This document shows positions 6,777 to 25,419 of a stretch of 32,000 bases of DNA, piece by piece (the first letter of the stretch is position 1; the number at the start of each line of letters is the position of its first letter). The DNA is taken from positions 1,770,001-1,802,000 of the forward strand of contig NC_014033.1 in assembly GCF_000025925.1 (NCBI RefSeq). The letters run 5' to 3'. The position numbers were made by a program, and so were the translations under genes. The notes below the pieces were generated by a model that was not told the origin of the DNA, did not search any database, and saw nothing but the letters and a program-made list of their open reading frames with translations. Source of the DNA: Xylanibacter ruminicola 23 (GTDB lineage: Bacteria; Bacteroidota; Bacteroidia; Bacteroidales; Bacteroidaceae).

Positions 6777-6784
6777 CAAAGATA
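6777..6784 (-). promoter_or_regulatory. Bacteroidetes -7 box (TATCTTTG)
   Basis: Matches TAnnTTTG on the minus strand, about 29 nt upstream of the ATG at 6748. Confidence 0.45.
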
Positions 6785-6993
6785 GAGTTTATTTTTGAAA
6801 GTTCCAAGTTTTTGGGGACTTTTTGTACATAAAACGGTGATCCCGATCTGACAGATATAAACCAGTGCCCTGAATCAGGGCAGTGGTTGGGGGATGCCGT
6901 CGCGATTCGCGACACTGCCCGGTTTTAGCAGGGAATCCGCGTGAACTGGCAGAAAACAGCTTATCCTACAGAGTAATCCCTTTCGCAGAGTTA

Positions 6994-7250
6994 TCGCTTA
7001 ACGAACAAAGAGAGCCGTGCCGCGGGGCATGGCTCTCTGATTGTTTCTACGCTTGGATGAAGGCTACTTTGTGGCGGTTCTTTGACGAGGGGGTGCTGGG
7101 GCGGACGGCAAAGTGCAGCCACACGGCACCGTAGCGATTCTTTTCTATCAGCAGCTCGTCGAACTCCTGCTGCGATTCCCGGGCGTAGGCCAGCAGGATG
7201 GCGGCATAGGTGATGGCTTGCTCCATGCCGCTGGTACGGATATCGGCCAC
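6994..7250. repeat. Direct repeat copy A (3' end of M15 peptidase gene plus its terminator)
   Basis: Near-identical by eye to 8524-8781, with one 1-nt indel and a few substitutions. Homology starts at TCGCTTAACGAAC and decays after GGTACGGAT.TCGGC. Confidence 0.9.
7047..7250 (-). pseudogene. 3' fragment of an M15 peptidase gene (last ~66 codons, no N-terminal catalytic part)
   Basis: The translation ADIRTSGMEQAITYAAILLAYARESQQEFDELLIEKNRYGAVWLHFAVRPSTPSSKNRHKVAFIQA is identical to the C-terminus of the 8578-9045 protein. Confidence 0.8.
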
Positions 7251-7340
7251 GCATATTCTTGCGAAGATGGTCTAACGAACCGTTACGCCAAGGCGGAATA
7301 ACTGCTGTCCTGACAGCGTTATCTATATTTTTAAGTTCAA

Positions 7341-7375
7341 GTGCTCTGCGCCGCCACGGCGCGGGCACTTTTTTT
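7341..7375 (+). terminator. GC-rich hairpin plus T7, oriented for the plus strand
   Basis: GTGCTCTGCGCCG-CCA-CGGCGCGGGCAC followed by TTTTTTT. It shares its flanks (AAGTTCAAGTGC...GGGCACTTTTTTT) with the minus-strand terminator at 15248-15282. Confidence 0.55.
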
Positions 7376-7376
7376 A

Positions 7377-8423
7377 TTAGAAGTATTCTCTTACGGCAAA
7401 TTCAAATTGCTCGATGAATATTTTCTTGAAAGCATAAAGGTTGTTCTGCTCGTAAAAAATAAGCATTGCCTTTTTGTAATCAATAGAGTCAACGGAACGA
7501 AAACTTAGTGGACAATAGCCATTGGCTATCAGAATGGCATTGCTGGTGATGCGGGCTGTGCGTTTGTTGCCATCCGCGAAAGCCTGAATATATGATAGAA
7601 GCACGAGGGTAAGGAGTGCTTTCTCAAACACATTTTCTTTACTATTGATCAAGTCACACGTGTCATGCAGAGCCTCACGAATCTGGAATTCATTATCAAG
7701 CGGATGATAATTGGTACCAGTGATTCCCACACGACGATGGCGGATACCTCTGTCGACAGATAATTCTTTGGTAAGTAACTGATGAATGTCTTCGATATGG
7801 CTGATTGTCAAATGTTGCAGATAATCAGGATTGTCGAGCACAAATCGTAAGGCATCTTTATGATTAAGCAGCATCACAGCTTCTTCTTTTGTCTTTCCGT
7901 CAGCAGTCTTACTCTCTCGCAGCAGGCGCTCTGTCTCAAGAAGCGAATAAGTATTTCCCTCTATTTGCGATGATTTCCAGCTGAGGTCGATACCCAAACG
8001 TTCCATCTCTTTGCGGTATTCGTTTTCTGTCATTTCACTAATGTGCTGCTTGAACTCTGCCTGCAGTTCATTCAGAAGCGCTATCTCATCGTCGGTAAAA
8101 AGCGTTACAACTGGGAGCTGTTGACGAATCAAATCAAAATTGAAAGAAGTCTGCACCTGTCGTTTATCCTGATCCTGCGAAAAATAGGTATCCAAATTTA
8201 GTGGCATCAGTAAGTGAGCTTGATCTGATAACCGATATCGAGTTGCGCGAGCCTTTCCTTCTACAACGATGCTGCCGTCTTTTACGCCCGACGCAATCAT
8301 ACGTTTCATGGTGGCATCACTACCTTCAAAGGCGATACCCTTTGCTATATCATCACGCGTAGATAGGGGATGATAGTGCAGATACTGTAATAATTCTCTT
8401 GCTATATCCATAACTAAGTTCAC
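7377..8423 (-). CDS. Fic/Doc-family protein with N-terminal winged-helix-like region; active-site His replaced by Gln
   Basis: 348 aa. It has the SSQIEGN inhibitory-helix motif ([ST]xxxE[GN]) and the core motif QAFADGNKRTAR, where the family consensus is HxFx[DE]GN[GK]RxxR. GC is visibly lower than in the flanking repeat. Confidence 0.8.
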   Translation of the reverse strand: MNLVMDIARELLQYLHYHPLSTRDDIAKGIAFEGSDATMKRMIASGVKDGSIVVEGKARATRYRLSDQAHLLMPLNLDTYFSQDQDKRQVQTSFNFDLIRQQLPVVTLFTDDEIALLNELQAEFKQHISEMTENEYRKEMERLGIDLSWKSSQIEGNTYSLLETERLLRESKTADGKTKEEAVMLLNHKDALRFVLDNPDYLQHLTISHIEDIHQLLTKELSVDRGIRHRRVGITGTNYHPLDNEFQIREALHDTCDLINSKENVFEKALLTLVLLSYIQAFADGNKRTARITSNAILIANGYCPLSFRSVDSIDYKKAMLIFYEQNNLYAFKKIFIEQFEFAVREYF

Positions 8424-8523: not shown

Positions 8524-8781
8524 TCGCTTAACGAACAAAGAGAGCCGTGCCGCTGGGGCATGGCTCTCTGATTGTTTCTAGGCTTGGATGAAGGCTACTT
8601 TGTGGCGGTTCTTTGACGAGGGGGTGCTGGGGCGGACGGCAAAGTGCAGCCACACGGCACCGTAGCGATTCTTTTCTATCAGCAGCTCGTCGAACTCCTG
8701 CTGCGATTCCCGGGCGTAGGCCAGCAGGATGGCGGCATAGGTGATGGCTTGCTCCATCCCGCTGGTACGGATGTCGGCGGC
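8524..8781. repeat. Direct repeat copy B (within the intact M15 gene and its terminator)
   Basis: See copy A at 6994-7250. The offset between copies is 1530-1531 nt. Confidence 0.9.
8539..8569 (-). terminator. Hairpin downstream of the M15 peptidase gene
   Basis: AGAGAGCCGTGCC-GCTG-GGGCATGGCTCTCT lies 9 nt after the stop at 8578 and is followed on the minus strand by TTGTTCGTT. The same hairpin is repeated at about 7008-7037. Confidence 0.5.
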
Positions 8782-9045
8782 GCAACCTGTCAGATGGTTG
8801 CTGGTGGGCGCTCCCCCAACCTTCCGGTTCAACTGCGGCGAGCGATAGCCCGAGTTGATCACAATAGATCGTCCGGTCCGTTCTCTCAGCGCTTCCAGCC
8901 ATGTGCATAGGCGTTTTAGATTTGCTATCGCCTCATGGCTAGGGATGTTATACACTTCGGGATGACTACTACTCTTTGTCATCTCACCTAGAGTGAAGTG
9001 CTCGGAGAGGTTTGCATTACTGTTTAACTGAACTATGGATTCCAT
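8578..9045 (-). CDS. Peptidase M15 family (D-Ala-D-Ala carboxypeptidase-like), phage-lysin-type cell wall hydrolase
   Basis: 155 aa. SEHFTLGEMTKSS...INSGYRSPQLNRKVGGAPTSNHLTGCAADI matches the Peptidase_M15_3 pattern (FxxxE, SGYR, SxH, AxD). Confidence 0.8.
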   Translation of the reverse strand: MESIVQLNSNANLSEHFTLGEMTKSSSHPEVYNIPSHEAIANLKRLCTWLEALRERTGRSIVINSGYRSPQLNRKVGGAPTSNHLTGCAADIRTSGMEQAITYAAILLAYARESQQEFDELLIEKNRYGAVWLHFAVRPSTPSSKNRHKVAFIQA

Positions 9046-9080
9046 AATGTTTAATGTTTAATCTTTAATGTTTAATTTAC
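9046..9080 (-). repeat. Heptamer array (minus-strand reading: GTAAATT AAACATT AAAGATT AAACATT AAACATT) abutting the M15 ATG
   Basis: Five tandem 7-nt units fill the whole gap between the 9072 stop and the 9045 start. Confidence 0.9.
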
Positions 9081-9443
9081 CTTTCTCTTCTTGTTCACGT
9101 TCAGTGGTGTACTATGGGGGAAGGCCTGGCTGTAGGCGCTGTCGAGGGCTTTCAGATCTATCTTGTAGTAGCTGATGACTGTACGTACAGCTACAATAGC
9201 GCGCAGCAGTTCGCGGTGCTTGCGCGGATAGAGACTGGGCTTTGGCAACTCGTTCCAGCCCTCCTGCTCGCACAGGTGGCACACGTGCCAGATAAAATCA
9301 TCATTGGCCTGTGGGCCGAACCACAGCTTCAGTATGTTACGTATGCAGTAGCGTTTGCACTGCATGCCAAGCAGGCGCCTTGTGCGCTCCAGCCGTAGCC
9401 AGAGCTGCACAAAGCATTCGCGGGTATTATCTACTTGTATCAT
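9072..9443 (-). CDS. Hypothetical protein
   Basis: 123-aa ORF whose ATG overlaps the upstream stop (ATGA at 9440-9443). I recognised no motifs. Confidence 0.5.
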   Translation of the reverse strand: MIQVDNTRECFVQLWLRLERTRRLLGMQCKRYCIRNILKLWFGPQANDDFIWHVCHLCEQEGWNELPKPSLYPRKHRELLRAIVAVRTVISYYKIDLKALDSAYSQAFPHSTPLNVNKKRKVN

Positions 9444-11056
9444 AGGTTGGCGTATTTTTGTTTAAACTGTTCGGTTTTACAATAGCGACGACTCACCTCG
9501 TCGTACACCAGATGACCGCGGGTTTGCCATTGGCGCAGGGCACTATCGCCATCGCCTTGCCTGCCTTGCTGCTGGCGCATCAGCATATACTGCTCGCGGG
9601 TAAACTCATCGGGCAGCAGGCGCAACAGGTTCTTGGGGCCCGAGCGGCGCTGTATCTCAACTTCCTCGCGCAACTCCTTCTCCAACTGGTCGCCAAAGTA
9701 CAGCATCTTGCACCACAGGTTGTACTGCTCGCTCCAACGCACAAAGTCGGCTATCGTCTTGTCCCATCTATAGCCGTGGGCCACATACAGCAGCATGCCT
9801 TTTAGCCACGAGATAACGTTGGCACGATACGACAGCACGCGATAGGCCTCACTCTCGAACAGCTTGGCAGCCTCCTTGTTTTCTATACGGATATCGAGCG
9901 AGAGTTTCTTGGCCTGCGGGCACTCTATCAGTCCGTTGGCAGCCTCCAACCGGTCGATATAAGGCTTCAGTTCGGCAGCAAACTGCTCGTCGTAGATGCC
10001 CTGTATGGGCGGCTCGTCGTCGTCATCATCGTTGCGGATGATGGTGGCCACATCCAGTCGGCCCACGGTACCATCGTTCACCATCTTATAGAAGAACTTA
10101 CGGGCGTTTGGCGGCGTGGTGCTGGCGTTAAAGTTCCATCTGAGCGGAGCAATACCACTCACGCTATCGGCACCCACGCGCTCCTGACCAGCCAGCGAAT
10201 TATCAAAGGCCTTACGTATCAGCAGCCCCACCTCATCTACCGAGTTTTTCGATGTCACCTTCTTCAGCGCCTCTACCTCATCTACGATGGTAAAAATGTA
10301 GCGCTGCCCGTTGTTGTGGGCATCCACTATGCGCTGGTTAAACACGGCATCGGTCAGGTTATCAATCAGCATCTGTATGCAGATATCAGCGGGGCGCGGG
10401 TCTTTTTTCTGCTTGCCGGTGGGGTTCTTGCGTTTCCACTCGGCCTCACGCTCGCGGTTGGGCTGGTCGCGCTGTCGGATGTCCTCCATGATGTAATCGA
10501 TGGGCTTTTTGATGCTGCCCTTACCGATGGATTGGCGACCCACCAGCAGATTCATAAACGTGGCCTCGTGCTCCACGTTGTCCCAATAGCGGAATTTCAC
10601 ACCGTGCAGATGCGCACCCAGCGCAGGAAATACCGCACTGGCCACGGCTGGTTTGTAATACCATGGCACGTTTTTGGTTAGCAGCTTTATCAGCGGTGGC
10701 AGCTTTTTGGGCATGGGTGGCGGTGCGGTCATGGTGCCGCCACAGGCCTTGATGCCTGCCTGCGATTTAAGTGCTTGCAGCACCTGTTTCAGTCGGTACG
10801 GCATACCCTTACGCGGTTCTTTCAGGGCGTTCTCGATGGTTTTCTGATACTCGTCCATATCGTCCTGGGTGCAGGTGCCATCAGGTGCAGCCCAGTAGTT
10901 GGGTATCACCTGCATCAGCTGCTCCAGATCGTAGCCGCAGATGCTGCGGATGGTAACGGCCAGCTCGAAGGTAAGCGCATTCCTATCGCCCACCGTAGGC
11001 ACCTTGCCGCCATTGTACAGCTCCCAGTACTTGGCAATAATCTCGCCAAACGCCAT
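9440..11056 (-). CDS. P-loop NTPase, DUF3987/P4-alpha-like helicase-type replication protein (putative)
   Basis: Long ORF with a Walker-A-like GRQSIGKGS and a Walker-B-like IFTIVDEVE. The track start at 11077 is a TTG. I prefer the ATG at 11056 (MAFGEII...) because the conserved 35-nt element then sits 12 nt upstream, as it does for the neighbouring gene. Confidence 0.55.
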   Translation of the reverse strand: MAFGEIIAKYWELYNGGKVPTVGDRNALTFELAVTIRSICGYDLEQLMQVIPNYWAAPDGTCTQDDMDEYQKTIENALKEPRKGMPYRLKQVLQALKSQAGIKACGGTMTAPPPMPKKLPPLIKLLTKNVPWYYKPAVASAVFPALGAHLHGVKFRYWDNVEHEATFMNLLVGRQSIGKGSIKKPIDYIMEDIRQRDQPNREREAEWKRKNPTGKQKKDPRPADICIQMLIDNLTDAVFNQRIVDAHNNGQRYIFTIVDEVEALKKVTSKNSVDEVGLLIRKAFDNSLAGQERVGADSVSGIAPLRWNFNASTTPPNARKFFYKMVNDGTVGRLDVATIIRNDDDDDEPPIQGIYDEQFAAELKPYIDRLEAANGLIECPQAKKLSLDIRIENKEAAKLFESEAYRVLSYRANVISWLKGMLLYVAHGYRWDKTIADFVRWSEQYNLWCKMLYFGDQLEKELREEVEIQRRSGPKNLLRLLPDEFTREQYMLMRQQQGRQGDGDSALRQWQTRGHLVYDEVSRRYCKTEQFKQKYANL

Positions 11057-11068
11057 GCCGTTGTAATC

Positions 11069-11103
11069 TTTTTGCAACGGAATACAGGACTTTAGGATTT
11101 TTC
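11069..11103 (-). promoter_or_regulatory. Conserved 35-nt leader element, copy 1
   Basis: TTTTTGCAACGGAATACAGGACTTTAGGATTTTTC matches 11757-11791 at 32 of 35 positions. It lies 12 nt upstream of the ATG at 11056 and spans the stop of the upstream gene. Confidence 0.6.
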
Positions 11104-11745
11104 CTTCGTGCGTTGTCGTGACTGGGGACTGGTACCTGTCACAGGATGTGACTGGCCCTGTCCCCTGTCGCGAGAGGTAACCGATGTTTTCGAACTGTCA
11201 CACTGTATCACTGTATCAACCTGTTCGGCCTCCTCAAATATCGCATCATCCAGATACAGCAGTTCGGCCTCTGTTGTAGTAAAGAACACGCGGGTGATGT
11301 CCTTGGCCCCACTATCATAAGCTACAGATATCAACTCACTCGCCCATTTCAGGTTCTCCTCCTGACTCAGTTCGGGCCTTCGCGCAAACACCAGGTGGTA
11401 GCCACCGCCACGGGCACTCTCCTCCATCATCTTCAATCCCAGCTCATCTTTCTTGCCCAGGATGCGCTCACGAACGGCAGGCATTTCATCGGGTGTCAGG
11501 TGGTCGATATCCATACCCACGGTGGTGCTCATACGGGTGCTGCCCTTCAGGCTGCCATCCTCGTTAGGTAAGCAGCTGTAGTTCATCTGCAGCAGCTTGT
11601 GTTTCAAAGTCTCCTCGCCATTGCGGATACGCGCCACCAACTGCTGCTGCTCGCCACCATTTCGCAAAGCCAGATACTCCTCTCTCGTTAGGACGGGACG
11701 CATCATCTTCGCCCCATCCTTTATATAAATTACATGTACACTCAT
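11092..11745 (-). CDS. Archaeo-eukaryotic primase (prim-pol)/VirE-N-like domain protein
   Basis: 217 aa. GMDIDH (DxD), GGGYHLVF (sGxGxH-like) and ITRVFF resemble the three AEP/prim-pol motifs. The C-terminal ~45 aa are low complexity and are encoded by repeat-rich DNA. Confidence 0.6.
   Translation of the reverse strand: MSVHVIYIKDGAKMMRPVLTREEYLALRNGGEQQQLVARIRNGEETLKHKLLQMNYSCLPNEDGSLKGSTRMSTTVGMDIDHLTPDEMPAVRERILGKKDELGLKMMEESARGGGYHLVFARRPELSQEENLKWASELISVAYDSGAKDITRVFFTTTEAELLYLDDAIFEEAEQVDTVIQCDSSKTSVTSRDRGQGQSHPVTGTSPQSRQRTKEKS
11193..11223 (+). repeat. 31-nt ACTGT-rich block (iteron-like), copy 1
   Basis: AACTGTCACACTGTATCACTGTATCAACCTG has ACTGT three times at 8-nt spacing. It matches the reverse complement of 17102-17132 at 30 of 31 positions. 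Its first 15 nt recur at 17237-17251. Confidence 0.9.
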
Positions 11746-11756
11746 AGTTTTTCATT

Positions 11757-11791
11757 TTTTTTGCAACGGATAACAGGACTTTACGATTTTT
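11757..11791 (-). promoter_or_regulatory. Conserved 35-nt leader element, copy 2
   Basis: It lies 11 nt upstream of the ATG at 11745. Part of it (11762-11779) forms an imperfect 18-nt inverted repeat with 11806-11823. Confidence 0.6.
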
Positions 11792-11836
11792 CTAATCAAT
11801 CTTGTCAGTCCTGTAGTCCGTTGCTAAATTTATTTA

Positions 11837-12508
11837 TCAGAAATTGGGGTATCCCAGTTTTGCGTTCAGGAATCTCACGCCATCAAGGGTCCAGGTCATG
11901 TAAACCTTTACCTTCTTCTGGCCCTTTAAACTATAGGATACGTGCGTGCGCAGGCGTGTAAGGTTGCGGTCGGCCAGATCGTCGCTGATGTTCCAATGCC
12001 CATCGCGGCGGTACTGTATGCCCATATCGCGCAGTATGGCGTTAAAGTCGTAGGTAGTCATGTTAAACGTCTTAGCCACCTGCGTAGCCGTCAGCGTATC
12101 CTCGGCGGGCTCGTTCAGCATGCGCAACCCCTCGCCGATAATCTCATCGGCCAGCGCCAGAATCTTCTTCGGACTTGGCAGTGCCAGCTGCTGCTTACGT
12201 TCCAGCTCCTGCAGTTCCAAGTGTTCCCAGCGCAGCACCAACTTGGCACGCTGCTCATCGTTAAACTTCGTGGCGATGTAGAGGCACTCGGTTTTGGTTA
12301 GCTGATAGCAGGGGGCGTGACGAACGGCACCATTGCCGATTTTTACCTCTCGGAACATCAGCGCAAATTTTCGCCCATGTACTTTTTCCCAGGCCGGCTC
12401 CATGTTTCGGATAGCCTTCATTAAGTCTTTGTGTTGCTTACCTGTCAGCTCAGCAATTTCGAGCGACGTAATTGTTTGTACCTTATTAATATTTATAATC
12501 TGTGTCAT
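11837..12508 (-). CDS. Rha-family phage regulatory protein with C-terminal KilAC antirepressor-like domain
   Basis: ITSLEIAELTGKQHKDLMKAIRNM...YQLTKTECLYIATKFNDEQRAKLVLRWEHLE follows the Phage_pRha pattern. The C-terminal TATQVAKTFNMTTYDFNAILRDMGIQYRRDGHW is KilAC-like. Confidence 0.8.
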   Translation of the reverse strand: MTQIININKVQTITSLEIAELTGKQHKDLMKAIRNMEPAWEKVHGRKFALMFREVKIGNGAVRHAPCYQLTKTECLYIATKFNDEQRAKLVLRWEHLELQELERKQQLALPSPKKILALADEIIGEGLRMLNEPAEDTLTATQVAKTFNMTTYDFNAILRDMGIQYRRDGHWNISDDLADRNLTRLRTHVSYSLKGQKKVKVYMTWTLDGVRFLNAKLGYPNF

Positions 12509-12600
12509 AATTTTGAGTTGTTTAAGCGAGAAGAAGTTTCGGAAATCCGATGGCCATCTTCACGTGAAGACTTCCTCTGCTCCAACTCATGGGTTTTACA

Positions 12601-12885
12601 TTATTTATTAAGCTTTACGATATCAGTGCAAAGTATCTCTTGGAACACTTGGTTCTGATATTCGTGAGTAGAGAAACGAAGTGTGGCTGCCACCACATCA
12701 CCTTCGTAGAACCTGCACGCCGCCAGATTGCCCAGCATAGCGCACACATACTCGTTTTCGAACTTTGATCCACCCATCTCGCGCAGCACAATGTTGCACT
12801 TCTGGATGGTACCGTTTTCTGTTTTCGACGACTGTACGCCAAAGGCCTCGCCCTGGCGTACTACTTTTAAAATTTTTGTTTCCAT
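12601..12885 (-). CDS. Small OB-fold-like protein (DUF3127-like, tentative)
   Basis: 94 aa. Its size and residue pattern (ILKVV..G..F....SK..G...K..IVL.E......YVC..L.......EGDVV...L.F..) resemble DUF3127 proteins. This is a weak call made by eye. Confidence 0.4.
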   Translation of the reverse strand: METKILKVVRQGEAFGVQSSKTENGTIQKCNIVLREMGGSKFENEYVCAMLGNLAACRFYEGDVVAATLRFSTHEYQNQVFQEILCTDIVKLNK

Positions 12886-13073
12886 AATTACAAAAATGTT
12901 GTGTAAGGTTTGTATTTACCATACCCTTTGCGTTTATAAATTGGTTTGTATCAGCATGTCAAAGAACGTGCAAACCGAATACAAAGCGAAAGCTTGCTTT
13001 CAGGCTTTGTTGAGGTGCAGCCGTTTTTCGAGGTGCAGCCTCAATGAGCACCGTCAATCAATGTTTGACGCTG

Positions 13074-13081
13074 CAAAGATA
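13074..13081 (-). promoter_or_regulatory. Bacteroidetes -7 box (TATCTTTG)
   Basis: TAnnTTTG immediately downstream of the 13087-13122 terminator, implying a leader of about 185 nt before the ATG at 12885. Confidence 0.4.
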
Positions 13082-13086
13082 GGCAC

Positions 13087-13122
13087 AAAAAAGAGGTGCA
13101 TGAAACAATGCCATGCACCTCT
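13087..13122 (-). terminator. Rho-independent terminator
   Basis: Perfect 11-bp stem AGAGGTGCATG/CATGCACCTCT with a 9-nt loop, followed on the minus strand by a T-run. It lies 27 nt after the stop at 13149. Confidence 0.75.
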
Positions 13123-13148
13123 GTAGGTAATTCTGTAAGTTCTGTAAC

Positions 13149-13589
13149 TTATTCTGTAAGAGTTTGTAGTTTTAGCCGCTTGCTTACCTCGTTTTTATAG
13201 GCATCAACCAGCCGCAACACACGCTGCTTTGCCCCCTGCTGTTCCCATTTACCAACGGCCAGTCGCATGTAGGGATTATGCCGAAAGGTGTTAGATATCA
13301 GTCCCTCTACACAACCGAAGTCGCGCTCAAACTGACTCATATTGTCAGCATACTGAAAGCAATCGCGGCACACCCCGAAGATAACAGCCATCGAGCTGTC
13401 ACCCCAAAAGAAATCGCGAACCTCGTCCACACTCTCCACTAGCATCTTCACCTCGGGCACATCACTCTGCTGGGACATCACCTGATGGTCGCCCACGCGC
13501 ACCTGCGCCTTATCTACCGAAAGATTCACCACCTCGTTGTCGTGAATGTCGACATACGATCCTTGCACATAAATATTATTTCCTGCCAT
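13149..13589 (-). CDS. Hypothetical protein
   Basis: 146-aa ORF. Its N-terminus (GSYVDIHDNEVV) repeats a motif found at the C-terminus of the upstream protein. Confidence 0.55.
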   Translation of the reverse strand: MAGNNIYVQGSYVDIHDNEVVNLSVDKAQVRVGDHQVMSQQSDVPEVKMLVESVDEVRDFFWGDSSMAVIFGVCRDCFQYADNMSQFERDFGCVEGLISNTFRHNPYMRLAVGKWEQQGAKQRVLRLVDAYKNEVSKRLKLQTLTE

Positions 13590-13602
13590 AGTTTTTATAG
13601 TT

Positions 13603-14103
13603 TTATATACGGGTTACACTACTGTTATCGTGGATGTCGTTATAGTTGCCAGCCACATTCACCACCTTGGGTTCCAACTGCTCATCATCGAGATGCGAAA
13701 GTTCCTCCATAATATCCTCGGGAAAATCCATCTGGGCACTGGCACACAACTCGGTAAACACCATTTTGGCAGCCTCGCGCTTAGCCAGATTCTTGCGCTT
13801 TGATATCTTGAGATAGCTGCGCATAGCCTTCAGGATATCGACTTGCGGCGATTTGCGCGCCACCCCGGCAGATAGTTTATTAAGCTCCGACAGTTTTACC
13901 TCGGCGGCTTGGCGTTGGGCCCTCTCGTCCTGCAGTTCGCTGTTAAGACGGTCGATTTTCGTGAGCAGCTCGTCTGTCAGTTCCATCAGTCGCACCAGGT
14001 TCAGTTTCTGTTCCAGTTTCTCTTTCATTTGCTCGATGTCGTTTTCGAGCATGCGCCTGGCACCATCCTGCCAAGCTTTCAAGTCTTCGTAATTCTGTTC
14101 CAT
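13603..14103 (-). CDS. Hypothetical coiled-coil protein
   Basis: 166-aa ORF, E/K/L/Q-rich with heptad-like regions, ending in GNYNDIHDNSSV. Confidence 0.55.
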   Translation of the reverse strand: MEQNYEDLKAWQDGARRMLENDIEQMKEKLEQKLNLVRLMELTDELLTKIDRLNSELQDERAQRQAAEVKLSELNKLSAGVARKSPQVDILKAMRSYLKISKRKNLAKREAAKMVFTELCASAQMDFPEDIMEELSHLDDEQLEPKVVNVAGNYNDIHDNSSVTRI

Positions 14104-14237
14104 ATTCTTTTTTAGTTTTGAGATTTAATGATATCCGATACCAGCTCGTTGAGAGCCATGATCAGAACGGTTATGAAAAATACATTTGCCATAATTATTT
14201 GATATATTTGTTTGATAAAATTTGGTTTTGGTTGCAA

Positions 14238-14275
14238 AATAAAAAACGAGATGTATCAGAACGCGATACACCTCG
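14238..14275 (-). terminator. Rho-independent terminator after the WYL gene
   Basis: On the minus strand: CGAGGTGTATC-GCGTTCT-GATACATCTCG (one G-U pair) followed by TTTTTTATTTT. It begins 7 nt after the stop at 14282. Confidence 0.7.
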
Positions 14276-14281
14276 AATATT

Positions 14282-15172
14282 TTAATATCTTTTAAGACCT
14301 TCGGCAAATTTCTGCCGCATCTGTTCGCGCACATCGGGCGGCGACAGCACCTCGATGCCAGCACCGTGAGATAGCAGCTGACTCAGGAAATCGTGCGTAG
14401 GACGGATATCAAACGTAAAGTCGGCATAGCTTTCGGCAGTGGCCACCTCGCGTTGTGAGTGGTGCAACGGCAGGGTGCGCAGGTAGTTGGGTGTGTAATC
14501 GTAAGCGCGTATCACCACATGGGCCATGGGCGTGTCGGTAGTCAACACACCGAAGTATTCCGAAAAATAATCCTGAGGCGAGAAATCGTCGGGCATTTCG
14601 AACAAATCATCTGTAGTTGAGAGCTCCGATATGCGATCGAGCGCATAGATGCGCAGCTGCTGCTCATCGTTCAGCGCCAGCAGGTACCAGCGCTGGTGAA
14701 ACAGCTTCAGGGCGTAGGGACACACCGTTTTTACATAGCCCTCGCCATTAAACTTCTGGTAGCCCATACGCAGGCGGCGGCCCGTGTGGAAAGCGTGTAT
14801 GATAGTGCTGAGATACTCGGCCCCAGAGGGGATGTTCTCAAGCACCATACGCTCTTTCAAGCCCACACTCTCGGCCAGCACACCATGCACCGAGAGCGTA
14901 TTGTACAGCCAGTGCGCAATGCTACCATTGGCAAGCACATCGGCATTTCGGATACTATATTTATAAGTAGATGAGTCGGCCTCGATGATGATGCCGAACA
15001 TGTCGAAGATGGAGCGGCGATGACGGGTAAGCGTGCTGCGCGTTAGCTGATTACCGTCGGTAACCCCATCATCACGCCACTTGCGGTCCAGTTCGTCAAG
15101 TGTTAGCGCACGGTGCACCTTAAGCGTGTTGATAAGCCAAATATACTGGTGAAAAATCTGAGCTGGTTTCAT
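14282..15172 (-). CDS. WYL-domain transcriptional regulator (HTH-WYL-C-terminal extension architecture)
   Basis: 296 aa. N-terminal HTH-like region (LTLDELDRKW...LTRSTLTRHRRSI) and a central ...HQRWYLLALN... WYL signature. Confidence 0.8.
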   Translation of the reverse strand: MKPAQIFHQYIWLINTLKVHRALTLDELDRKWRDDGVTDGNQLTRSTLTRHRRSIFDMFGIIIEADSSTYKYSIRNADVLANGSIAHWLYNTLSVHGVLAESVGLKERMVLENIPSGAEYLSTIIHAFHTGRRLRMGYQKFNGEGYVKTVCPYALKLFHQRWYLLALNDEQQLRIYALDRISELSTTDDLFEMPDDFSPQDYFSEYFGVLTTDTPMAHVVIRAYDYTPNYLRTLPLHHSQREVATAESYADFTFDIRPTHDFLSQLLSHGAGIEVLSPPDVREQMRQKFAEGLKRY

Positions 15173-15177
15173 GCCTG

Positions 15178-15185
15178 CAAAGGTA
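15178..15185 (-). promoter_or_regulatory. Bacteroidetes -7 box (TACCTTTG)
   Basis: TAnnTTTG only 5 nt upstream of the ATG at 15172, suggesting a leaderless-type transcript. Confidence 0.4.
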
Positions 15186-15247
15186 CAGTTTTTCTTTGGA
15201 TTATTACGATTTTGGCCGTATTATTTCTTTGGATTTTCCCAAATAAC

Positions 15248-15282
15248 AAAAAAAGTGCCCCTCGCCTCGCGACGAAGGGCAC
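15248..15282 (-). terminator. Rho-independent terminator after the BspA-like gene
   Basis: On the minus strand: GTGCCCTTCG-TCGCGAGG-CGAGGGGCAC followed by TTTTTTT. Confidence 0.75.
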
Positions 15283-15320
15283 TTGAACTTAGAATTACGA
15301 TAACGTTTATTTTGTAATAA

Positions 15321-16892
15321 TCAATCGTTCCAATCACCAACGGCAGTCCAGGTTGCCCAGGTTGAAGGCATTAATGCATCCCAGCTTGCTTTATTTGTTG
15401 TAGTGGTGTGCAACTTAGCACCAGTTGCCGTGCAACCATCGAACATTTGATAACATTCATGATTCAAACTTGTATATGCAGCCTTCACATAAGCAGTGGT
15501 CAGGCTGCTGCAGCCATAGAACATTCTATTGTAGCAGTCTCCTTTCAGCTCCGTGGCGGGCAGGGCGGGTGCTGTAGTCAGGCTGCTGCAGTAACTGAAC
15601 ATGCCAGAGTAGCAGTACTCCTTCAGCGTCGTGGCGGGCAGCGCGGGCGCTGTGGTCAGGCTGCTGCAGTTATAGAACATACTATTGTAGCAGTTGTCGG
15701 CCAGGGCCGTGGCGGGCAGCGCGGGCGCTGTGGTCAGGCTGCAGCCCTGGAACATAGCATAGTAGCAGTACTCCTTCAGCGTCGTGGCGGGCAGCGCGGG
15801 TGCTGTAGTCAGGCTGCTGCAGCCATAGAACATGCCATAGTAACAGAAGGTGGCCAGCGTCGTGGCGGGCAGCAGCAGGCCGCTGGCGTCGGTCAGTTTG
15901 GCGTTAGTATCGAATAATAAGGTGAAAGAAGCCCACCCCGTCAGCGTGATGTTTGTGGCAAAATTTGTCTCGTCCACCAGACTCATGATGTTGCCATACA
16001 CTTTTATATCAGCCGTGCCGCCAGTAATCGTGGTGCCGTCATAACTTGTAATAGTGGTGCCGTTTCCATAGAACGCTACCTTGTCGCCTACAGCCACGTC
16101 GATAGGAGTGCCGTCAGGTACAGCCGTCTTAGCGCCACCGTTCAGCGAATACTGCATGCCTGCCTGCGGATACGAAACCTTAATCGTTCCAGCCGTGAGT
16201 GCCTCCAGTGTGAGCGGTGTGCTCAGCGTTGGAACAATGGTTACCTCAACAGCCGAAGCAGCAATCTCGCTGTCATTATAGCCAGTGTTACCCTTGGCGT
16301 AGTACCATACGTAGTAGGTGCCTACCCCGAGGTTTGCTGCCGTGGGCACTGTGGCACTGAAGCCATCGGTAGTGGTGGGCTTCGCGTTAGTCTCAGTCAC
16401 CTGATACATCATCGTGCCGCCATCGGCCACGCCTGCTGTAACAAGGGCTGTGGTTGAGCCAGTTACGATGTAGCCCGCTGTAGCCTTCGGAGCGGTGGTG
16501 ATAGTAGCAGCTGGGAGGGTGGCTGGTTTAACCGTCAACTTGTATGATTTTGAATCGGCCTGGAAAATCTTTTTGCCGCCGGTGCTGTAGCCAGTGGCCG
16601 TAGCGGTGATGGTGGCTTCGCCTTCGGCAATGGCGGTCACCATGCCCTCGCCATCAACGGTGGCTACCTTGGTATCGCTCGAGGTATATTCCACCACGGC
16701 TGTGATCACCGAGATGGCCTTGCGCCTGTAGGTGTCGCCTACCTTGATTGTTACAGGCTTGTCGCTCATAGAGAGATAAGCCGGTGTGGGATTGTCTTCG
16801 CTGGCGAAGATGTCGTCGCAAGCCGTAAAGAGCACAGCCAGGCAGCACATCAGCGATGCCTGCAGCAGTCTTGAAATACTTTTCTTTGTCAT
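15321..16892 (-). CDS. Cell-surface lipoprotein with Big_2-like Ig domain and BspA-type leucine-rich/Cys-containing repeats
   Basis: 523 aa with lipobox LFTACDD. VATVDGEGMVTAIAEGEATITATA resembles Big_2. Five tandem 26-aa repeats read LPATxLxxxCYxxMFxxCSSLTTAPA. Confidence 0.75.
   Translation of the reverse strand: MTKKSISRLLQASLMCCLAVLFTACDDIFASEDNPTPAYLSMSDKPVTIKVGDTYRRKAISVITAVVEYTSSDTKVATVDGEGMVTAIAEGEATITATATGYSTGGKKIFQADSKSYKLTVKPATLPAATITTAPKATAGYIVTGSTTALVTAGVADGGTMMYQVTETNAKPTTTDGFSATVPTAANLGVGTYYVWYYAKGNTGYNDSEIAASAVEVTIVPTLSTPLTLEALTAGTIKVSYPQAGMQYSLNGGAKTAVPDGTPIDVAVGDKVAFYGNGTTITSYDGTTITGGTADIKVYGNIMSLVDETNFATNITLTGWASFTLLFDTNAKLTDASGLLLPATTLATFCYYGMFYGCSSLTTAPALPATTLKEYCYYAMFQGCSLTTAPALPATALADNCYNSMFYNCSSLTTAPALPATTLKEYCYSGMFSYCSSLTTAPALPATELKGDCYNRMFYGCSSLTTAYVKAAYTSLNHECYQMFDGCTATGAKLHTTTTNKASWDALMPSTWATWTAVGDWND
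15499..15873. repeat. Tandem coding repeat, five units with 78-nt period (one unit of 75 nt)
   Basis: GTCAGGCTGC unit starts at 15499, 15577, 15655, 15733 and 15808. Confidence 0.9.
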
Positions 16893-16960
16893 GATTGATC
16901 GTTTTAGAGAATTATTATATGTTATTACGTAAAAATTTCTTTATCATCAGATATCGGCTA

Positions 16961-16968
16961 CAAAGGTA
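16961..16968 (-). promoter_or_regulatory. Bacteroidetes -7 box (TACCTTTG)
   Basis: TAnnTTTG about 68 nt upstream of the ATG at 16892. Confidence 0.45.
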
Positions 16969-17045
16969 AAAAATTTTCAGCTGCTTTCACCCTCCACTGA
17001 GTTAAATCTTGTTAATCTGATAGATGTTTCTAAGTTTCGTAGCAC

Positions 17046-17086
17046 AAAAAAAACGCCGACATCCCTTTAAAATAAGCAGATATCGG
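17046..17086 (-). terminator. Candidate terminator (weak stem, long T-run)
   Basis: On the minus strand: CCGATATC, a 15-nt loop, GATGTCGG, then CG and a T-run of at least eight. Confidence 0.35.
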
Positions 17087-17101
17087 AGAGAGAAAAAACA
17101 A

Positions 17102-17132
17102 CAGGTTGATACAGTGTTACAGTGTGACAGTT
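17102..17132 (-). repeat. 31-nt ACTGT-rich block, copy 2 (inverted relative to copies 1 and 3)
   Basis: Its reverse complement is AACTGTCACACTGTAACACTGTATCAACCTG. Confidence 0.9.
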
Positions 17133-17155
17133 AGAAAAACGAGGGTGTGATGGTG

Positions 17156-17163
17156 CAAAAGTA
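17156..17163 (-). promoter_or_regulatory. Orphan -7 box (TACTTTTG) inside the repeat-bracketed segment
   Basis: TAnnTTTG on the minus strand. The next minus-strand ATG is about 260 nt away, beyond a candidate terminator. Confidence 0.35.
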
Positions 17164-17166
17164 TAT

Positions 17167-17204
17167 CTATATTATTATATATATAAATATATATAATAAT
17201 ATAG
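17167..17204. repeat. Perfect 38-bp palindrome, A/T except the outermost C-G pair
   Basis: CTATATTATTATATATAT-AA-ATATATATAATAATATAG: 18-bp arms checked base by base with a 2-nt centre at 17185-17186. Confidence 0.95.
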
Positions 17205-17236
17205 CAGTATATACAGCAAGGGAGGGGCGAGAATTT

Positions 17237-17251
17237 TAACTGTCACACTGT
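17237..17251 (+). repeat. 15-nt ACTGT block, copy 3
   Basis: AACTGTCACACTGTA is a perfect inverted repeat of 17118-17132. The midpoint of the pair (17184.5) nearly coincides with the centre of the AT palindrome. Confidence 0.9.
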
Positions 17252-17292
17252 ATTTTTGTGCGGATGATTCGTGAACCGCAATCAAAATATCG

Positions 17293-17300
17293 TACCTTTG
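17293..17300 (+). promoter_or_regulatory. Bacteroidetes -7 box (TACCTTTG)
   Basis: TAnnTTTG about 169 nt upstream of the HU-like ATG at 17470. Confidence 0.45.
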
Positions 17301-17397
17301 CAGTGTTGAAATGAAATGAGACTGATGGCGGCCGCGCGCGGCAAAAATATTTCCCACGTGCACTAAGAAATTCTCCCACACGAGGGCGCTAGAAGCT

Positions 17398-17439
17398 CAT
17401 TAAACATGAAACATTAAACATTAAACATTAACTATTAAA
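17398..17439 (+). repeat. Heptamer array CATTAAA-type, six units
   Basis: CATTAAA CATGAAA CATTAAA CATTAAA CATTAAC TATTAAA, ending 30 nt upstream of the HU-like start. Confidence 0.9.
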
Positions 17440-17469
17440 ATTATTTTTACAAACTTAAAATTTAGCATT

Positions 17470-18006
17470 ATGGCACTGAAAGTTAAAGCACAGGAAAAGT
17501 TGCAGAAGATTGGCAAGTATGAGGGTACTTATCGCTACATCATGATGCCGGAGTTGTACACCTCTCTCAGTCAGGACAAGGTGATTAAGGAGGCTGCCCT
17601 GCGCAGCGGAGTTAGCAAGGGTATTATGCAGGCCTGCTGGGATGCGGCTGGCGAAGTGATTAAGGCTTGGGCCACAGAGGGTCACTCGGTTGCGCTGCCA
17701 GGTTTGGGAACCATGCGATTCGGTATCCGCGCCAAGAGTGTAGCCAAGGTGGACGAGGTGAAAGCCGGACTGGTAACCAGTCGCCGCATTATCTTCACCC
17801 CAGCGGTGGATCTGAAGGAGGAGCTGGCAGGCACGGCCATCCAGATTACCTGCTACGACCGCGATGGCAAGGAGATTAAGCGCGTGACCAGTACCGACCC
17901 AGGTACGGTTGAGGATCCCGATCAGCCATCGAATGGCGGAAATACCAGCGGCGGTGGTAATACCGGTGGCAACGGTGGAAACCACAACGAACCGATCGGA
18001 GACTAA
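17470..18006 (+). CDS. HU-family (Bacteroidales long-form histone-like) DNA-binding protein with G/N-rich C-terminal tail
   Basis: 178 aa. ...VIKEAALRSGVSKGIMQACWDAAGEVIKAWATEGHSVALPGLGTMRFGIRAK...RRIIFTP follows the HU/IHF fold pattern. The tail is NGGNTSGGGNTGGNGGN. Confidence 0.75.
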   Translation: MALKVKAQEKLQKIGKYEGTYRYIMMPELYTSLSQDKVIKEAALRSGVSKGIMQACWDAAGEVIKAWATEGHSVALPGLGTMRFGIRAKSVAKVDEVKAGLVTSRRIIFTPAVDLKEELAGTAIQITCYDRDGKEIKRVTSTDPGTVEDPDQPSNGGNTSGGGNTGGNGGNHNEPIGD

Positions 18007-18278: not shown

Positions 18279-19529
18279 CTATAAATTATCCCAACGGTTA
18301 CAATAGGGCTCAAGTATTTTGAGGGGAACCTGAAGTTCGGTGGCCGTTGCTCGCCAATCTTTAATGGCGGTACGTACCTGATCTATGATTTCAGAGGCCT
18401 CCTGCTGTTCAAACATATAGCTACCCGAGGCGTGGAGCAGAGTGTTGGCATCCGACTGCTCGGTGTATTGGTCGATAAGCAGGCATTGATGCAACTTTGT
18501 ACCTGGGTTTATATCGTAGGCAGGTGAGAGCGTCCACCCTTTCGGAGTAAGCAAGAAACCGTGATTGCGAAAGTGGTCGTCGGTATTGCCAAACATCACG
18601 TTAAACGCCACTCTACGATATAGTTCTCTGAGGTTCTGCTGTACGTCAACACATCCCTGAAGAATGAAATCTACGATGTCTAAATAACCATTACCTGTAC
18701 TACTGCCGGCACCATCGTCGAAACCAAGCAACGACATAGCTGAAGCAAAATGTTTACGACGGCCATCGGCAGTTCTGTCGAAACGTTCAGAAAGCAACAG
18801 ATGGCGATCTTTTGAAATCTTGATGGTATGGGTATTGGCCACGTTGATACCAGCTGCAGCTGCTAGCCTGTGCGAGAAATGCTCGATAAGTTCGGTGTTC
18901 TCCAAATCCTTCTTCGAAGGGAACTTAGCCACATAGAGTTTGCCGTCGGCATCTATGACATTGGCTTTGGGGCGGGCACCACCAAGCGATGTTCCTGGGT
19001 CGATCAACTGGTCGATCCAACGCTGCTCGGGCAACTCATTACGTTCTTCGGCCGACTCGATTTCATGACAGGCATCGCACAGGGCTCGAAGACTTTCAAT
19101 GGGAGGCACTAGGAATTTTGCAGAATCGTTCATGTAGCTATCACTATCTTCATCTCTGTAGCGTATGCCGCCCATACGTGTAAAATCCTCAATACCCGTA
19201 AGGTAATCAAAGTTGGTAAGCATACGCACAGGTCTGCTCTCAGCTTGTGCTTTCAGGCGCTCTCTGCGGTCGAGCAACAAACGTCCCCAACGATCGGGAA
19301 AAGAGTCCTTCACGAACCCAAACACACTATCTGCACCACGAGGATGCTGCAACGAGGGCACATTCATCAGGTCGCCACTCAACATGATACCGCCATGCTT
19401 TTTCAGCCATTCGCGCGAATACTCAAATACAAAGTGATCTTTGCCACGAATACGTTCGTAGCCTAACGTTCCTATTTCTTGGGGAGTGGCAAGAAAGTCG
19501 AAATCTGCGAATACCGTAATCTTTTTCAT
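18279..19529 (-). CDS. hipA: HipA-family serine/threonine kinase toxin
   Basis: 416 aa. N-terminal HipA-coupling region, SLGGARPKA, and the catalytic-loop GNTDDHFRNHGF. The start overlaps the upstream HTH gene by 4 nt. Confidence 0.85.
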   Translation of the reverse strand: MKKITVFADFDFLATPQEIGTLGYERIRGKDHFVFEYSREWLKKHGGIMLSGDLMNVPSLQHPRGADSVFGFVKDSFPDRWGRLLLDRRERLKAQAESRPVRMLTNFDYLTGIEDFTRMGGIRYRDEDSDSYMNDSAKFLVPPIESLRALCDACHEIESAEERNELPEQRWIDQLIDPGTSLGGARPKANVIDADGKLYVAKFPSKKDLENTELIEHFSHRLAAAAGINVANTHTIKISKDRHLLLSERFDRTADGRRKHFASAMSLLGFDDGAGSSTGNGYLDIVDFILQGCVDVQQNLRELYRRVAFNVMFGNTDDHFRNHGFLLTPKGWTLSPAYDINPGTKLHQCLLIDQYTEQSDANTLLHASGSYMFEQQEASEIIDQVRTAIKDWRATATELQVPLKILEPYCNRWDNL

Positions 19530-19825
19530 TTGCTAAGCAATTCTGCATCCTGAAGCTGACGGCCGAGTGCATCGTCGGCAGCAAGCAACGAGATATCCTT
19601 TTCAAGATTTAGCGCAAAGAGCACACGCGCATAGATACCCATGGAAACCGTAGGGTCGCCATGTTCCACCTTCGAGACAGTCAGTCGTGTAACCGTTGCC
19701 CTGTCTGCTACGTCCTGCATAGAGAGATGCCTACGCTTACGTGCCAGCATAATCTGTTCGCCCATAAGTTGCAACTGCTGAGCCAAAGCCCTCGGCATCG
19801 TCTTTCCGAATGTATTCTTTCCCAT
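19526..19825 (-). CDS. XRE-family HTH antitoxin (HipB-like)
   Basis: 99 aa. ARKRRHLSMQDVADRATVTRLTVSKVEHGDPTVSMGIYARVLFAL is a Cro/C1-type HTH. The gene is translationally coupled to hipA. Confidence 0.75.
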   Translation of the reverse strand: MGKNTFGKTMPRALAQQLQLMGEQIMLARKRRHLSMQDVADRATVTRLTVSKVEHGDPTVSMGIYARVLFALNLEKDISLLAADDALGRQLQDAELLSK

Positions 19826-24483: not shown

Positions 24484-25419
24484 ATGAACATCAACAAACC
24501 TATCAGTCGAAGAAAAGCACTCAAGGTCATGGGCCTTGGAATGTTTGCAGCCTGCGTTCCGACGCTTCCGTCGTTTGGAGAGTCCCCAAAGGAAAATGAG
24601 AAGAAGACCAAACGTCTGATCTTCTATTTCTCTGCAACCGGCAATAGCCTTTATATAGCCAGGCAGTTGGGCGGAGATGAAGCGACCTTGCTGAGCATCT
24701 CACAGGAAATTCACAACGAGCATCCTGATTATGAGGCAGAAGAAATAGGATTCGTGTGTCCCGTCTACTGTTTCATTCCTCCTGCCATTGTCCAGGATTT
24801 CATTGCTCGTTCATCTTTCAAGGCCGATTATTTCTTTACAGTGGGCACTTATGGAGCCCATAGCACGATATTCCCAGAGTTCGTTGATGACCTTGCCAAG
24901 AAGCACGGTTTTCAGATGAATTATATCTCTACCATCCAGATGGTCGATACTTACCTGCCGTATTTCGACATGGAAAGGGAATTGGCCGACCCCAAGCTTC
25001 AGCGTATTCCCGAAAGAGTTGCCACAGTTCTTGCTTCTATCAACAATCGCGAAAACTATATTCAGGAGGTTACAGAGCAGGACAGGATGATATGTGACGG
25101 ATATTACCGCATGTCGGGACGCGACCGCCAGCGCCCGACTATGACAAGATCGGAGAAGATTGTCTTTGCCACGGATGACTGCATCGGATGTGGAGTTTGT
25201 ACTTCGGTTTGTCCGCATGGCTCCTGGAAAGTGATTGATGGTCATTCGGTTGCCAATGGGGTATGCGAAAATTGTCTGGCATGTGTTCACAACTGCCCGA
25301 AGAAAGCAATTTCAATCATTCCCACGCCTCCTGAACCCGAAGAGGCAAACAGGAATGCACGATATCGTAATCCGAATGTCAGCTTAGCTGATCTCATCAA
25401 GGCCAATAGTCAACAATAA
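24484..25419 (+). CDS. Flavodoxin-like plus 2x[4Fe-4S] ferredoxin-domain protein with Tat-type signal
   Basis: 311 aa. SRRKALKVMGLGMFAA (twin-Arg), LIFYFSATGNSLYIA (flavodoxin-like), CIGCGVCTSVCP and CENCLACVHNCP. Confidence 0.75.
   Translation: MNINKPISRRKALKVMGLGMFAACVPTLPSFGESPKENEKKTKRLIFYFSATGNSLYIARQLGGDEATLLSISQEIHNEHPDYEAEEIGFVCPVYCFIPPAIVQDFIARSSFKADYFFTVGTYGAHSTIFPEFVDDLAKKHGFQMNYISTIQMVDTYLPYFDMERELADPKLQRIPERVATVLASINNRENYIQEVTEQDRMICDGYYRMSGRDRQRPTMTRSEKIVFATDDCIGCGVCTSVCPHGSWKVIDGHSVANGVCENCLACVHNCPKKAISIIPTPPEPEEANRNARYRNPNVSLADLIKANSQQ

Follow-up and report, generated by a model that had tools for sequence, protein, structure and literature searches.

Here we describe a module at positions 17100-17254 of a 32,000-nucleotide stretch of DNA from Xylanibacter ruminicola 23 (contig NC_014033.1, positions 1,770,001 to 1,802,000 of the forward strand; this whole stretch is called the window, and coordinates refer to it). 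The module consists of two facing arrays of 8-bp repeats on either side of an A/T-only palindrome, and, judged from its sequence, it is probably the replication origin, or an origin-derived cis site, of a small chromosomal island of the X. ruminicola type that encodes a primase-ATPase-winged-helix protein. The best reading is that it is an origin of the kind found in staphylococcal pathogenicity islands (SaPIs) and P4, placed in an integrase-less Bacteroidales island. The architecture of the module, its conservation across loci, and the co-variation of its repeats both with one another and with one residue of the protein were observed directly in the sequences compared; from these observations we infer binding of the protein, melting of the palindrome and replication at the module. 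The elements of the module are as follows:

17100-17132, plus strand: cargo-side putative iteron array, AACAGGTT followed by the units GATACAGT (17108-17115), GTTACAGT (17116-17123) and GTGACAGT (17124-17131); it faces the palindrome, and a like array is present in 28 modules.
17133-17166, no strand: left spacer of 34-35 bp, AGAAAAACGAGGGTGTGATGGTGCAAAAGTATAT; conserved in length, unlike the right spacer in sequence, and holding TACTTTTG on the minus strand.
17167-17204, no strand: A/T-only palindrome closed by C/G, CTATATTATTATATATAT AA ATATATATAATAATATAG; the proposed unwinding or cruciform element.
17205-17237, no strand: right spacer of 33-34 bp, GCAGTATATACAGCAAGGGAGGGGCGAGAATTTT.
17238-17254, minus strand: HU-side putative iteron array, inverted, with the minus-strand units GTGACAGT (17246-17239) and AATACAGT (17254-17247).

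The palindrome is 38 bp long, and its two arms of 18 nt (17167-17184 and 17187-17204), separated by 2 nt (AA), show 100% complementarity, just as an earlier note on this DNA had described. That note had also reported perfect 15-nt inverted repeats almost concentric with the palindrome. The left copy, TACAGTGTGACAGTT, is indeed at 17118-17132; the right copy, AACTGTCACACTGTA, is at 17238-17252, one base away from the 17237-17251 given there. The arrangement is concentric as claimed, with centres of 17185.5 for the palindrome and 17185.0 for the inverted repeat (the note had midpoints of 17184.5 and 17185.5), and the repeat stretches to 19 nt at 95% (17118-17136 and 17234-17252). A distant copy starting at 11193 likewise exists, although it is not 31 nt ending at 11223: positions 17100-17132 are the reverse complement of 11193-11225 over 33 nt, with a single mismatch at 17117. 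With up to three mismatches allowed, the 15-mer has five matches in the window against 0.70 expected, a number reached by none of 100 shuffles. All of these repeats are made of tandem 8-bp units (GNNNCAGT), two of which, inverted, form the right side, and the unit nearest to the palindrome is GTGACAGT on both sides. Only these three array sites occur in the window, the sole further match to the 7-mer CACTGTA (24837-24843) being within chance expectation.

For comparison, 80 genome loci encoding relatives of the primase were fetched with the primase as query, and a script searched 81 sources for a perfect A/T palindrome with flanking inverted repeats. The result showed that the module is present in 28 of the 81 sources and is always upstream of the primase gene. 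The layout shared by the 28 modules is an array of 8-bp units ending in CAGT, a spacer, a C/G-closed A/T-only palindrome, a second spacer and an inverted array. The palindromes of the other loci are perfect though their sequences differ, and they range from 21 to 48 bp in length; between close strains two positions differ per palindrome arm, and the changes compensate. In most modules 34-36 nt lie between each edge of the palindrome and the last unit of the array on that side, whatever the length of the palindrome, so that the array-to-array distance varies only with palindrome length. Because it is the edges of the palindrome, and not its centre, that keep the fixed 34-36 bp distance from the arrays, extrusion of the palindrome is suggested; if it is extruded, the arrays would always be about 70 bp apart. 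The gene that diverges from the module encodes an HU-HIG family protein in 11 loci and is a DUF5675-like open reading frame (ORF) in five.

The primase of Segatella copri is only 27% identical to that of the window, yet its locus has the same module layout with unrelated repeat units. Each arm is a perfect repeat of 35 nt built from GGTCATTAAGG-type units; the two enclose an A/T palindrome, with 87 bp between them, and lie upstream of an HU-HIG gene. A further array begins a few bases past the primase stop codon. One S. copri locus (L093; 4959-5050 and 12505-12583) has four array sites, including a degenerate array beyond the HU and DUF6486 genes. Many viral-labelled IMG/VR contigs (L096-L113) end within about 50 nt of the S. 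copri array, mostly at the repeat; such ends probably reflect breaks in assembly at a multi-copy repeat and not the true ends of genomes.

The protein that would read the repeats is encoded several kilobases from the module, and its gene carries the third array:

11092-11745, minus strand: 5' part of the primase gene, 217 aa, with a domain like the archaeo-eukaryotic primases (AEPs; VirE_N / BT4734-like) followed by a linker; ended by a frameshift.
9440-11077, minus strand: 3' part of the primase gene, 545 aa, with a P-loop ATPase (GRQSIGKGS, IVDEVE) distantly related to DUF3987 and a C-terminal winged-helix domain.
9443-9622, minus strand: predicted winged-helix domain, with the recognition helix DSALRQWQTR; the specificity-predicting Q is codon 9530-9532.
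11193-11225, minus strand: third array (half-site) in the primase linker; its coding strand reads AACAGGTT GATACAGT GATACAGT GTGACAGT T and translates as EQVDTVIQCDS.

In related strains (including L001 and L003) the primase is intact as one gene of 758-771 aa; assembly GCA_900102205.1 also has an intact copy. Residues D75, D77, H113 and D145, which fit AEP motifs, do not vary between the two clades compared, nor do G407, K408, G409 and S410 (the GKGS Walker A motif) and E489 (Walker B). Close relatives are named 'VirE N-terminal domain-containing protein' in their source annotations, and the PADLOC PrimPol model matches the N-terminal region with E = 2e-4. The window protein has no match to PF13148 (DUF3987) itself; a tblastn comparison related it to an S. 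copri protein carrying PF13148 (E = 1e-41, 26.8% identity over 588 aa). A sequence search of the PDB with the primase profile found no relative. The AlphaFold model is fair for the N-terminal domain (predicted local distance difference test, pLDDT, 63-92), for a helical domain after the linker and for the last 60 residues. The top three Foldseek matches of the full model, none of them significant, are AEPs (NrS-1 primase-polymerase, E = 9e-3; RepB', E = 0.1; LigD polymerase, E = 0.18). The last 60 residues are modelled as helix-helix-helix-hairpin (pLDDT 72-88), and their best fold matches, which are not significant, are winged-helix domains, that of MCM8 first. The order of domains, primase, P-loop ATPase and winged helix, is that of P4 alpha, pRN1 ORF904 and SaPI PriRep.

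The primase linker is hypervariable, both in its length and in its sequence, between flanks that are 80-100% identical. Arrays of the locus's own unit type were found in 37 of the 80 primase linkers, nearly always with three units, and in seven of the 80 loci an array follows the primase stop codon by 2-50 nt, with the reverse orientation there in none. The linker array differs from the module of its own locus by 3.4 mismatches per 24 nt and from the modules of other loci by 6.7, a relation matched by none of 10,000 permutations. Since a period of 8 nt runs inside a reading frame, the linker repeat is a feature of the DNA and not of the protein. The constant strand and the matching unit type argue that the linker arrays are functional rather than neutral, although some of them may have a neutral origin. 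The linkers of ten loci (L013, L014, L016, L017, L023, L024, L030, L038, L050 and L053) carry unrelated, in-frame small palindromic repeat elements, which recur in the intergenic DNA of the same loci (GGCACGGAT...ATCCGTGCC, about 100 nt; TGTCATCTCGACTAAGCG...GAGATCTC; CCCCTCC...GGAGGGG); insertions of repeats seem to be tolerated in the linker. At 17100-17117, the flank of the window-type array is similar to the stretch of the primase sequence that directly precedes the linker array (AACAGGTTGA, with weaker similarity over about 30 nt more), which points to an earlier duplication or gene conversion involving both sites.

The relation between repeats and protein was examined in the 53 loci of known spacer-proximal unit type, using the alignment columns outside the linker. 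The result showed that one column, X in D-S-T-L-R-X-W, predicts the spacer-proximal repeat unit. Where X is Q, as in the window, the unit is GTGACAGT in all eight loci; where X is S, C or K, it is GTTGCAGT in 17 loci, with one GCTG and one CTTG besides; where X is T or A, it is GCTACAGT in 14 loci, with three GTTT; and where X is V, it is GTTACAGT in eight loci, with one GTAA. The mutual information between this column and the unit is 1.92 of 2.42 bits, compared with 1.20 for the runner-up column. On a tree built from the rest of the protein, residue and unit each need 19 changes, and in nearest-neighbour pairs the residue differs in 19 of the 19 cases in which the unit differs, never staying constant when the unit changes. 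Four loci found later and not used for the rule agree with it, three fully (L029, L037 and L047) and one partly (L051). X occupies position six of the predicted recognition helix, the third helix of the domain. One residue of this predicted helix thus predicts the unit through about 19 independent switches, and on this strong though indirect evidence the 8-bp repeats are very probably iterons that the primase protein recognises. One genome may have two islands of different unit types (for example L011 and L020, or L012 and L017), as expected if cross-reaction between co-resident islands is avoided.

These data are consistent with the following mechanism. The C-terminal winged helix of the island's primase-ATPase would read the 8-bp iterons, and protein bound to the two facing arrays would assemble on either side of the A/T-only palindrome. 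The palindrome might then melt or extrude, whereupon the primase would start synthesis. The third array in the primase linker could serve as an extra half-site, acting as a second cis site in the manner of P4 crr, or in autoregulation or pairing.

Some of the same features could belong to an RNA. As single-stranded DNA, 17100-17255 folds with -26.1 kcal/mol compared to -8.8 +/- 2.4 kcal/mol for shuffled sequences (z = -7.1), the two arms co-vary, and one of them shows complementarity of 15-33 nt to the primase mRNA, as would suit an RNA element in which an A/U hairpin is enclosed by a long stem of the inverted arrays, or an antisense transcript that pairs with the primase mRNA. We consider this very improbable. 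Pairing needs no tandem 8-nt units, an 18-bp A/U-only hairpin with a 2-nt loop would be an odd RNA element, the third array is past the stop codon in S. copri and seven other loci, and the repeat type follows an amino acid in a predicted DNA-binding helix. In addition, a search of the window against Rfam at gathering thresholds and a tRNA scan gave no match.

The module is located between two divergent genes, a Big_2/BspA-like gene on the minus strand and an HU-HIG gene on the plus strand, which raises the question of promoters. A sigma-70 promoter and terminator scan was uninformative for a Bacteroidales genome, and TAnnTTTG boxes were searched for by script instead. One such box, TACTTTTG, lies inside the left spacer on the minus strand (17163-17156) and another at the module edge on the plus strand (17251-17258). 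The BspA-like gene and the HU gene each have a TACCTTTG box of their own outside the module, at 16968-16961 and 17293-17300, respectively. An unlikely alternative is that the module is an operator only, with no replication start, and that transcription of the divergent HU gene and of the island operon is repressed or insulated there by the primase or by some other protein of the island; the in-gene array would then be a roadblock or looping partner and the palindrome promoter-upstream DNA. The two boxes inside and at the edge of the window module fit this, as does the position of the module between divergently transcribed genes in every locus and its retention beside the HU gene in islands that have no primase. 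Iterons of iteron plasmids, moreover, often double as autoregulatory sites. On the other hand, the boxes within the module are not conserved in other loci, and the distance from array to HU promoter, about 40 bp in the window and about 170 bp in S. copri, is unlike that of a fixed operator. The co-varying protein is a primase-ATPase and no regulator, and an operator leaves unexplained why the A/T core is strictly palindromic and keeps the same distance from both arrays. A regulatory role is possible alongside other roles, as it is compatible with them.

The box in the left spacer figures in the second hypothesis of the earlier note, a small invertible segment that redirects a promoter. In this alternative, a recombinase encoded elsewhere would flip 17133-17237 or 11226-17099. 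Perfect inverted repeats do enclose about 105 bp holding a TAnnTTTG box, and Bacteroidales use distant invertases. As the note had stated, no recombinase was found in the window, at least among the 30 larger ORFs, which were scanned against Pfam. The asymmetric spacers keep one polarity in the assemblies of nine strain contigs, in the 28 modules and in two metagenome contigs, against the proposed 104-bp flip; the last two came from a metagenome scan for the flipped junction, which gave two loci, both in the normal orientation, their match being explained by an HU-side array of three units. The promoter box is present as the note had said; it is neither the only such box nor found in other modules, and both flanking genes have their own promoters outside the segment, which speaks against a promoter switch. 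Each repeat is an array of units, and these co-vary with a residue of the primase; the repeats are also unlike ARACGTWCGT, which we take to be the core of the Bacteroides fragilis invertible-promoter repeats. If the 5.9-kb block 11224-17101 were inverted, as the note had suggested, the reading frame of the primase would be disrupted, and this frame runs uninterrupted in all 80 related loci; the argument is weak, those loci having been chosen with a primase query. Taken together, an invertible switch is exceedingly improbable. The note's first hypothesis, a replication origin or cis-replication site, fits the conservation of the module next to homologous prim-pol genes, a check that the note had proposed, as well as the co-variation of the repeats with the linker copy and with the helix residue.

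The remaining genes of the island and its HU-HIG neighbour are as follows:

11837-16892, minus strand: island genes between module and primase, namely a Rha/KilAC antirepressor-like gene (11837-12508) and ORFs of 94, 146 and 166 aa, then variable cargo.
Within 11837-16892, minus strand: variable cargo, a WYL regulator (14282-15172) and a Big_2/BspA-like protein (15321-16892).
8578-9443, minus strand: distal island end, a 123-aa ORF (9072-9443) and a Peptidase_M15_3 gene (8578-9045).
17470-18006, plus strand: HU-HIG family gene, transcribed away from the module, with its TACCTTTG box at 17293-17300.

The window is chromosomal DNA of a rumen bacterium of the Xylanibacter (Prevotella) ruminicola type, and one further locus (L002, assembly GCA_019973335.1) has the same gene order; the named homologues nearest to the primase of that locus are X. 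ruminicola proteins. Comparison of L116-L125 with window positions 8578-18006 showed that strains differ by insertion or deletion of the island at a single site of the chromosome, which has a GDSL-lipase gene on one side and an OMP/GH115 cluster on the other. L117 and L118 have the island at full size, L120, L121, L124 and L125 lack it, and in L119 and L122 it is reduced to DUF6486, HU, the module, Bro-N and M15, without primase. Filled and empty sites, when compared, showed neither clean island ends nor a target duplication, and the empty site holds 786 bp of other DNA that includes a fragment of a TonB-receptor-like gene. In three island types, similarity on the cargo side ends exactly at the outer edge of the cargo-side array (window 17100-17117; L001, about 7640; L008, about 75; L122, about 6075).

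Genes of toxin-antitoxin or defence type crowd the island and its edges (PIN, Fic, WYL regulator and HipA/HTH; 6133-8423, 14282-15172 and 18279-19825), and a sister strain (L004, 2243-2975) has HEPN/nucleotidyltransferase, the cargo varying among strains with identical HU proteins. PADLOC run on the window recognised no known defence system beyond the WYL regulator and the weak PrimPol match. The leader of the HU-HIG gene (17301-17469) is long, as it also is in S. copri, and contains a G/C palindrome, GGCGGCCGCGCGCGGC (17328-17343), and a tract of CATTAAA repeats in tandem (17398-17432). Seven of nine strain contigs have the G/C palindrome unaltered, and the other two have it with two extra bases; the sequence of the CATTAAA tract varies somewhat among strains. 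A 15-nt direct repeat (16943-16957 and 17072-17086; ATCATCAGATATCGG and ATAAGCAGATATCGG, 87% identical) is located between the start of the BspA-like gene and the module.

The variable state of the island bears on a further alternative, in which the module is a site of recombination or cargo exchange, a pair of transposon-like ends, or a relic, that is, the site or scar of cargo swaps and deletions. In its favour, the similarity breaks coincide with the outer edge of the cargo-side array in the three island types, the island is absent, reduced or full at one site across strains, and S. copri has further arrays beyond the HU gene and after the primase gene. Even so, we regard it as quite improbable: the island has no transposase or recombinase, the site shows no target duplication and is not cleanly empty (the 786 bp of other DNA), the window holds three array sites with the other CACTGTA match within chance, and the A/T palindrome, the fixed spacing and the residue/repeat code would go unexplained. 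A miniature inverted-repeat transposable element, or another transposon with terminal inverted repeats, was considered separately and rejected, there being only three linked array sites, no flanking duplications, and always the same island context for the module.

Several findings weigh against interpreting the module as an origin. First, the co-variation identifies the reader of the repeats and not the purpose of its binding. Second, the module is 0.8-9 kb upstream of the primase gene and does not adjoin it, it was within reach in only 19 of the 40 loci having at least 6 kb of upstream sequence, and the primase-less mini-islands L119, L122 and L008 retain it. Third, the island gave no sign of being autonomous: no integrase or recombinase family was recognised among the 30 scanned ORFs, none of the 35 whole contigs checked was circular, plasmid records contained no relative, and phage collections yielded one unannotated 4-kb phage-labelled record and, in IMG/VR, one contig with a match in a prophage region. 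Fourth, the identification of the protein is weak. The match of the N-terminal 165 residues to BT4734-like_N (PF08800) scores 17.2 bits, below the cut-off of 22.4; no Foldseek match of the full model or of the C-terminal domain reaches E <= 0.001; and the ATPase core is poorly modelled (pLDDT <50) because the alignment held two sequence clades only. Finally, the primase gene of the window is split by linker deletions of 9 nt and 1 nt (net 10 nt; 11092-11170), so that the copy of the module in the window may no longer fire. We speculate that this split, which leaves separate primase and ATPase-winged-helix ORFs as in most SaPIs, need not inactivate the system.

If the module is an origin, the islands might be resident replicons that fire inside the chromosome and not dead relics, an extension that we regard as unlikely. 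A signal, phage attack for instance, would bring the primase-helicase to the palindrome, and loading there would lead to local over-replication of the adjacent HU-HIG gene and of the defence and surface cargo, which is exchanged rapidly. The lone array within the primase gene or after it would be a boundary or a second half-origin, and the one-residue code would stop cross-firing between co-resident islands.

VirE_N/DUF3987-type primase genes and HU-HIG genes are among the commonest unexplained genes of Bacteroidales; at least 8000 relatives of the window primase protein exist, and genomes often hold several copies. If the module is an origin, these gene clusters would become recognisable as small replicons or replicon-derived islands, each with a defined cis site, a reader protein and a rule relating one helix residue to one repeat unit, which would give a handle for annotating them. 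They might also supply compatible origins for Prevotella and Bacteroides genetics, where vectors are scarce, and a natural system for the joint change of initiator and origin specificity. The palindromic A/T core at a fixed distance makes cruciform-based opening directly testable.

In a survey of HU-HIG proteins, conserved linkage to other genes was almost entirely lacking (PMC5499826). Here and in S. copri, by contrast, an HU-HIG gene has a conserved module and an island with a primase as its neighbours. Papers on the families BT4734-like and DUF3987 were found as well (PMC5862659; PMC11724360). In the literature searched by gene cluster, domain names and Bacteroidetes iteron satellites, only gene lists and domain surveys were found, and neither the module nor the residue/repeat rule is described there.

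Among known systems, SaPI Rep binds iterons via its C-terminal winged-helix domain, and these iterons flank an A/T-rich region in opposite directions (PMC9371898). SaPIs and other phage-inducible chromosomal islands therefore resemble the present case in that a helicase-type ATPase with a C-terminal winged helix reads short opposed repeats around an A/T-rich region; their primase and Rep are fused (PriRep5 of SaPI5) or separate, and specificity differs between islands (PMC9371898). They differ in that the SaPI origin directly follows rep, whereas the module is 0.8-9 kb upstream of the gene, and in that SaPI repeats are 5-6 bp around a centre that is A/T-rich without being a strict palindrome, compared to 8-bp units and a perfect A/T-only palindrome here. 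SaPIs also have an integrase and helper-phage induction, whereas the islands described here have no integrase and carry an extra half-site in or after the gene; unlike SaPIs, they combine a BT4734-like AEP primase with a DUF3987-like ATPase in Bacteroidales hosts.

P4 alpha binds octamer repeats at ori and, several kilobases off and in opposite orientation, at crr. These octamers resemble the 8-bp units and the distant inverted third array described here. Like the island protein, P4 alpha combines primase, helicase and a DNA-binding C-terminal domain of the winged-helix type within one polypeptide, in the order also found in pRN1 ORF904 (PMC2777425). The pRN1 protein is likewise a three-part initiator with an AEP-type primase, whose winged helix has been proposed to recognise the origin, in a study that did not identify the cognate site of the protein (PMC2777425). 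Unlike the island, pRN1 is a plasmid, and it is not known to have a comparable module of repeats and palindrome. P4, for its part, differs in having a DnaG-like primase and an integrase, in existing also as a plasmid, and in an ori that is not known to have inverted arrays around a palindromic A/T core. The lambda origin has its initiator repeats inside gene O, in the portion coding for the linker between two domains. The array at 11193-11225 matches these iterons in a linker; in lambda, however, the whole origin (four iterons and an A/T-rich region) is inside O, whereas here one array is in the gene and the A/T core is several kilobases away. In herpes simplex virus, oriS and oriL have an A/T centre in a palindrome and inverted sites for the origin-binding helicase UL9, and are located between divergent genes. 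The module shares the A/T palindrome, the inverted sites and the divergent genes with them; they differ in that their virus is eukaryotic, their proteins are unrelated, and each site is a single box in place of a tandem array of 8-bp units. Iteron origins served by a self-loading initiator are a kind of system already well known, and what is new is an A/T core that is strictly palindromic and keeps a fixed distance to the arrays, a half-site within the initiator gene or after it, the exchangeable cargo that separates origin from initiator gene, and the setting in very common, integrase-less islands of Bacteroidales.

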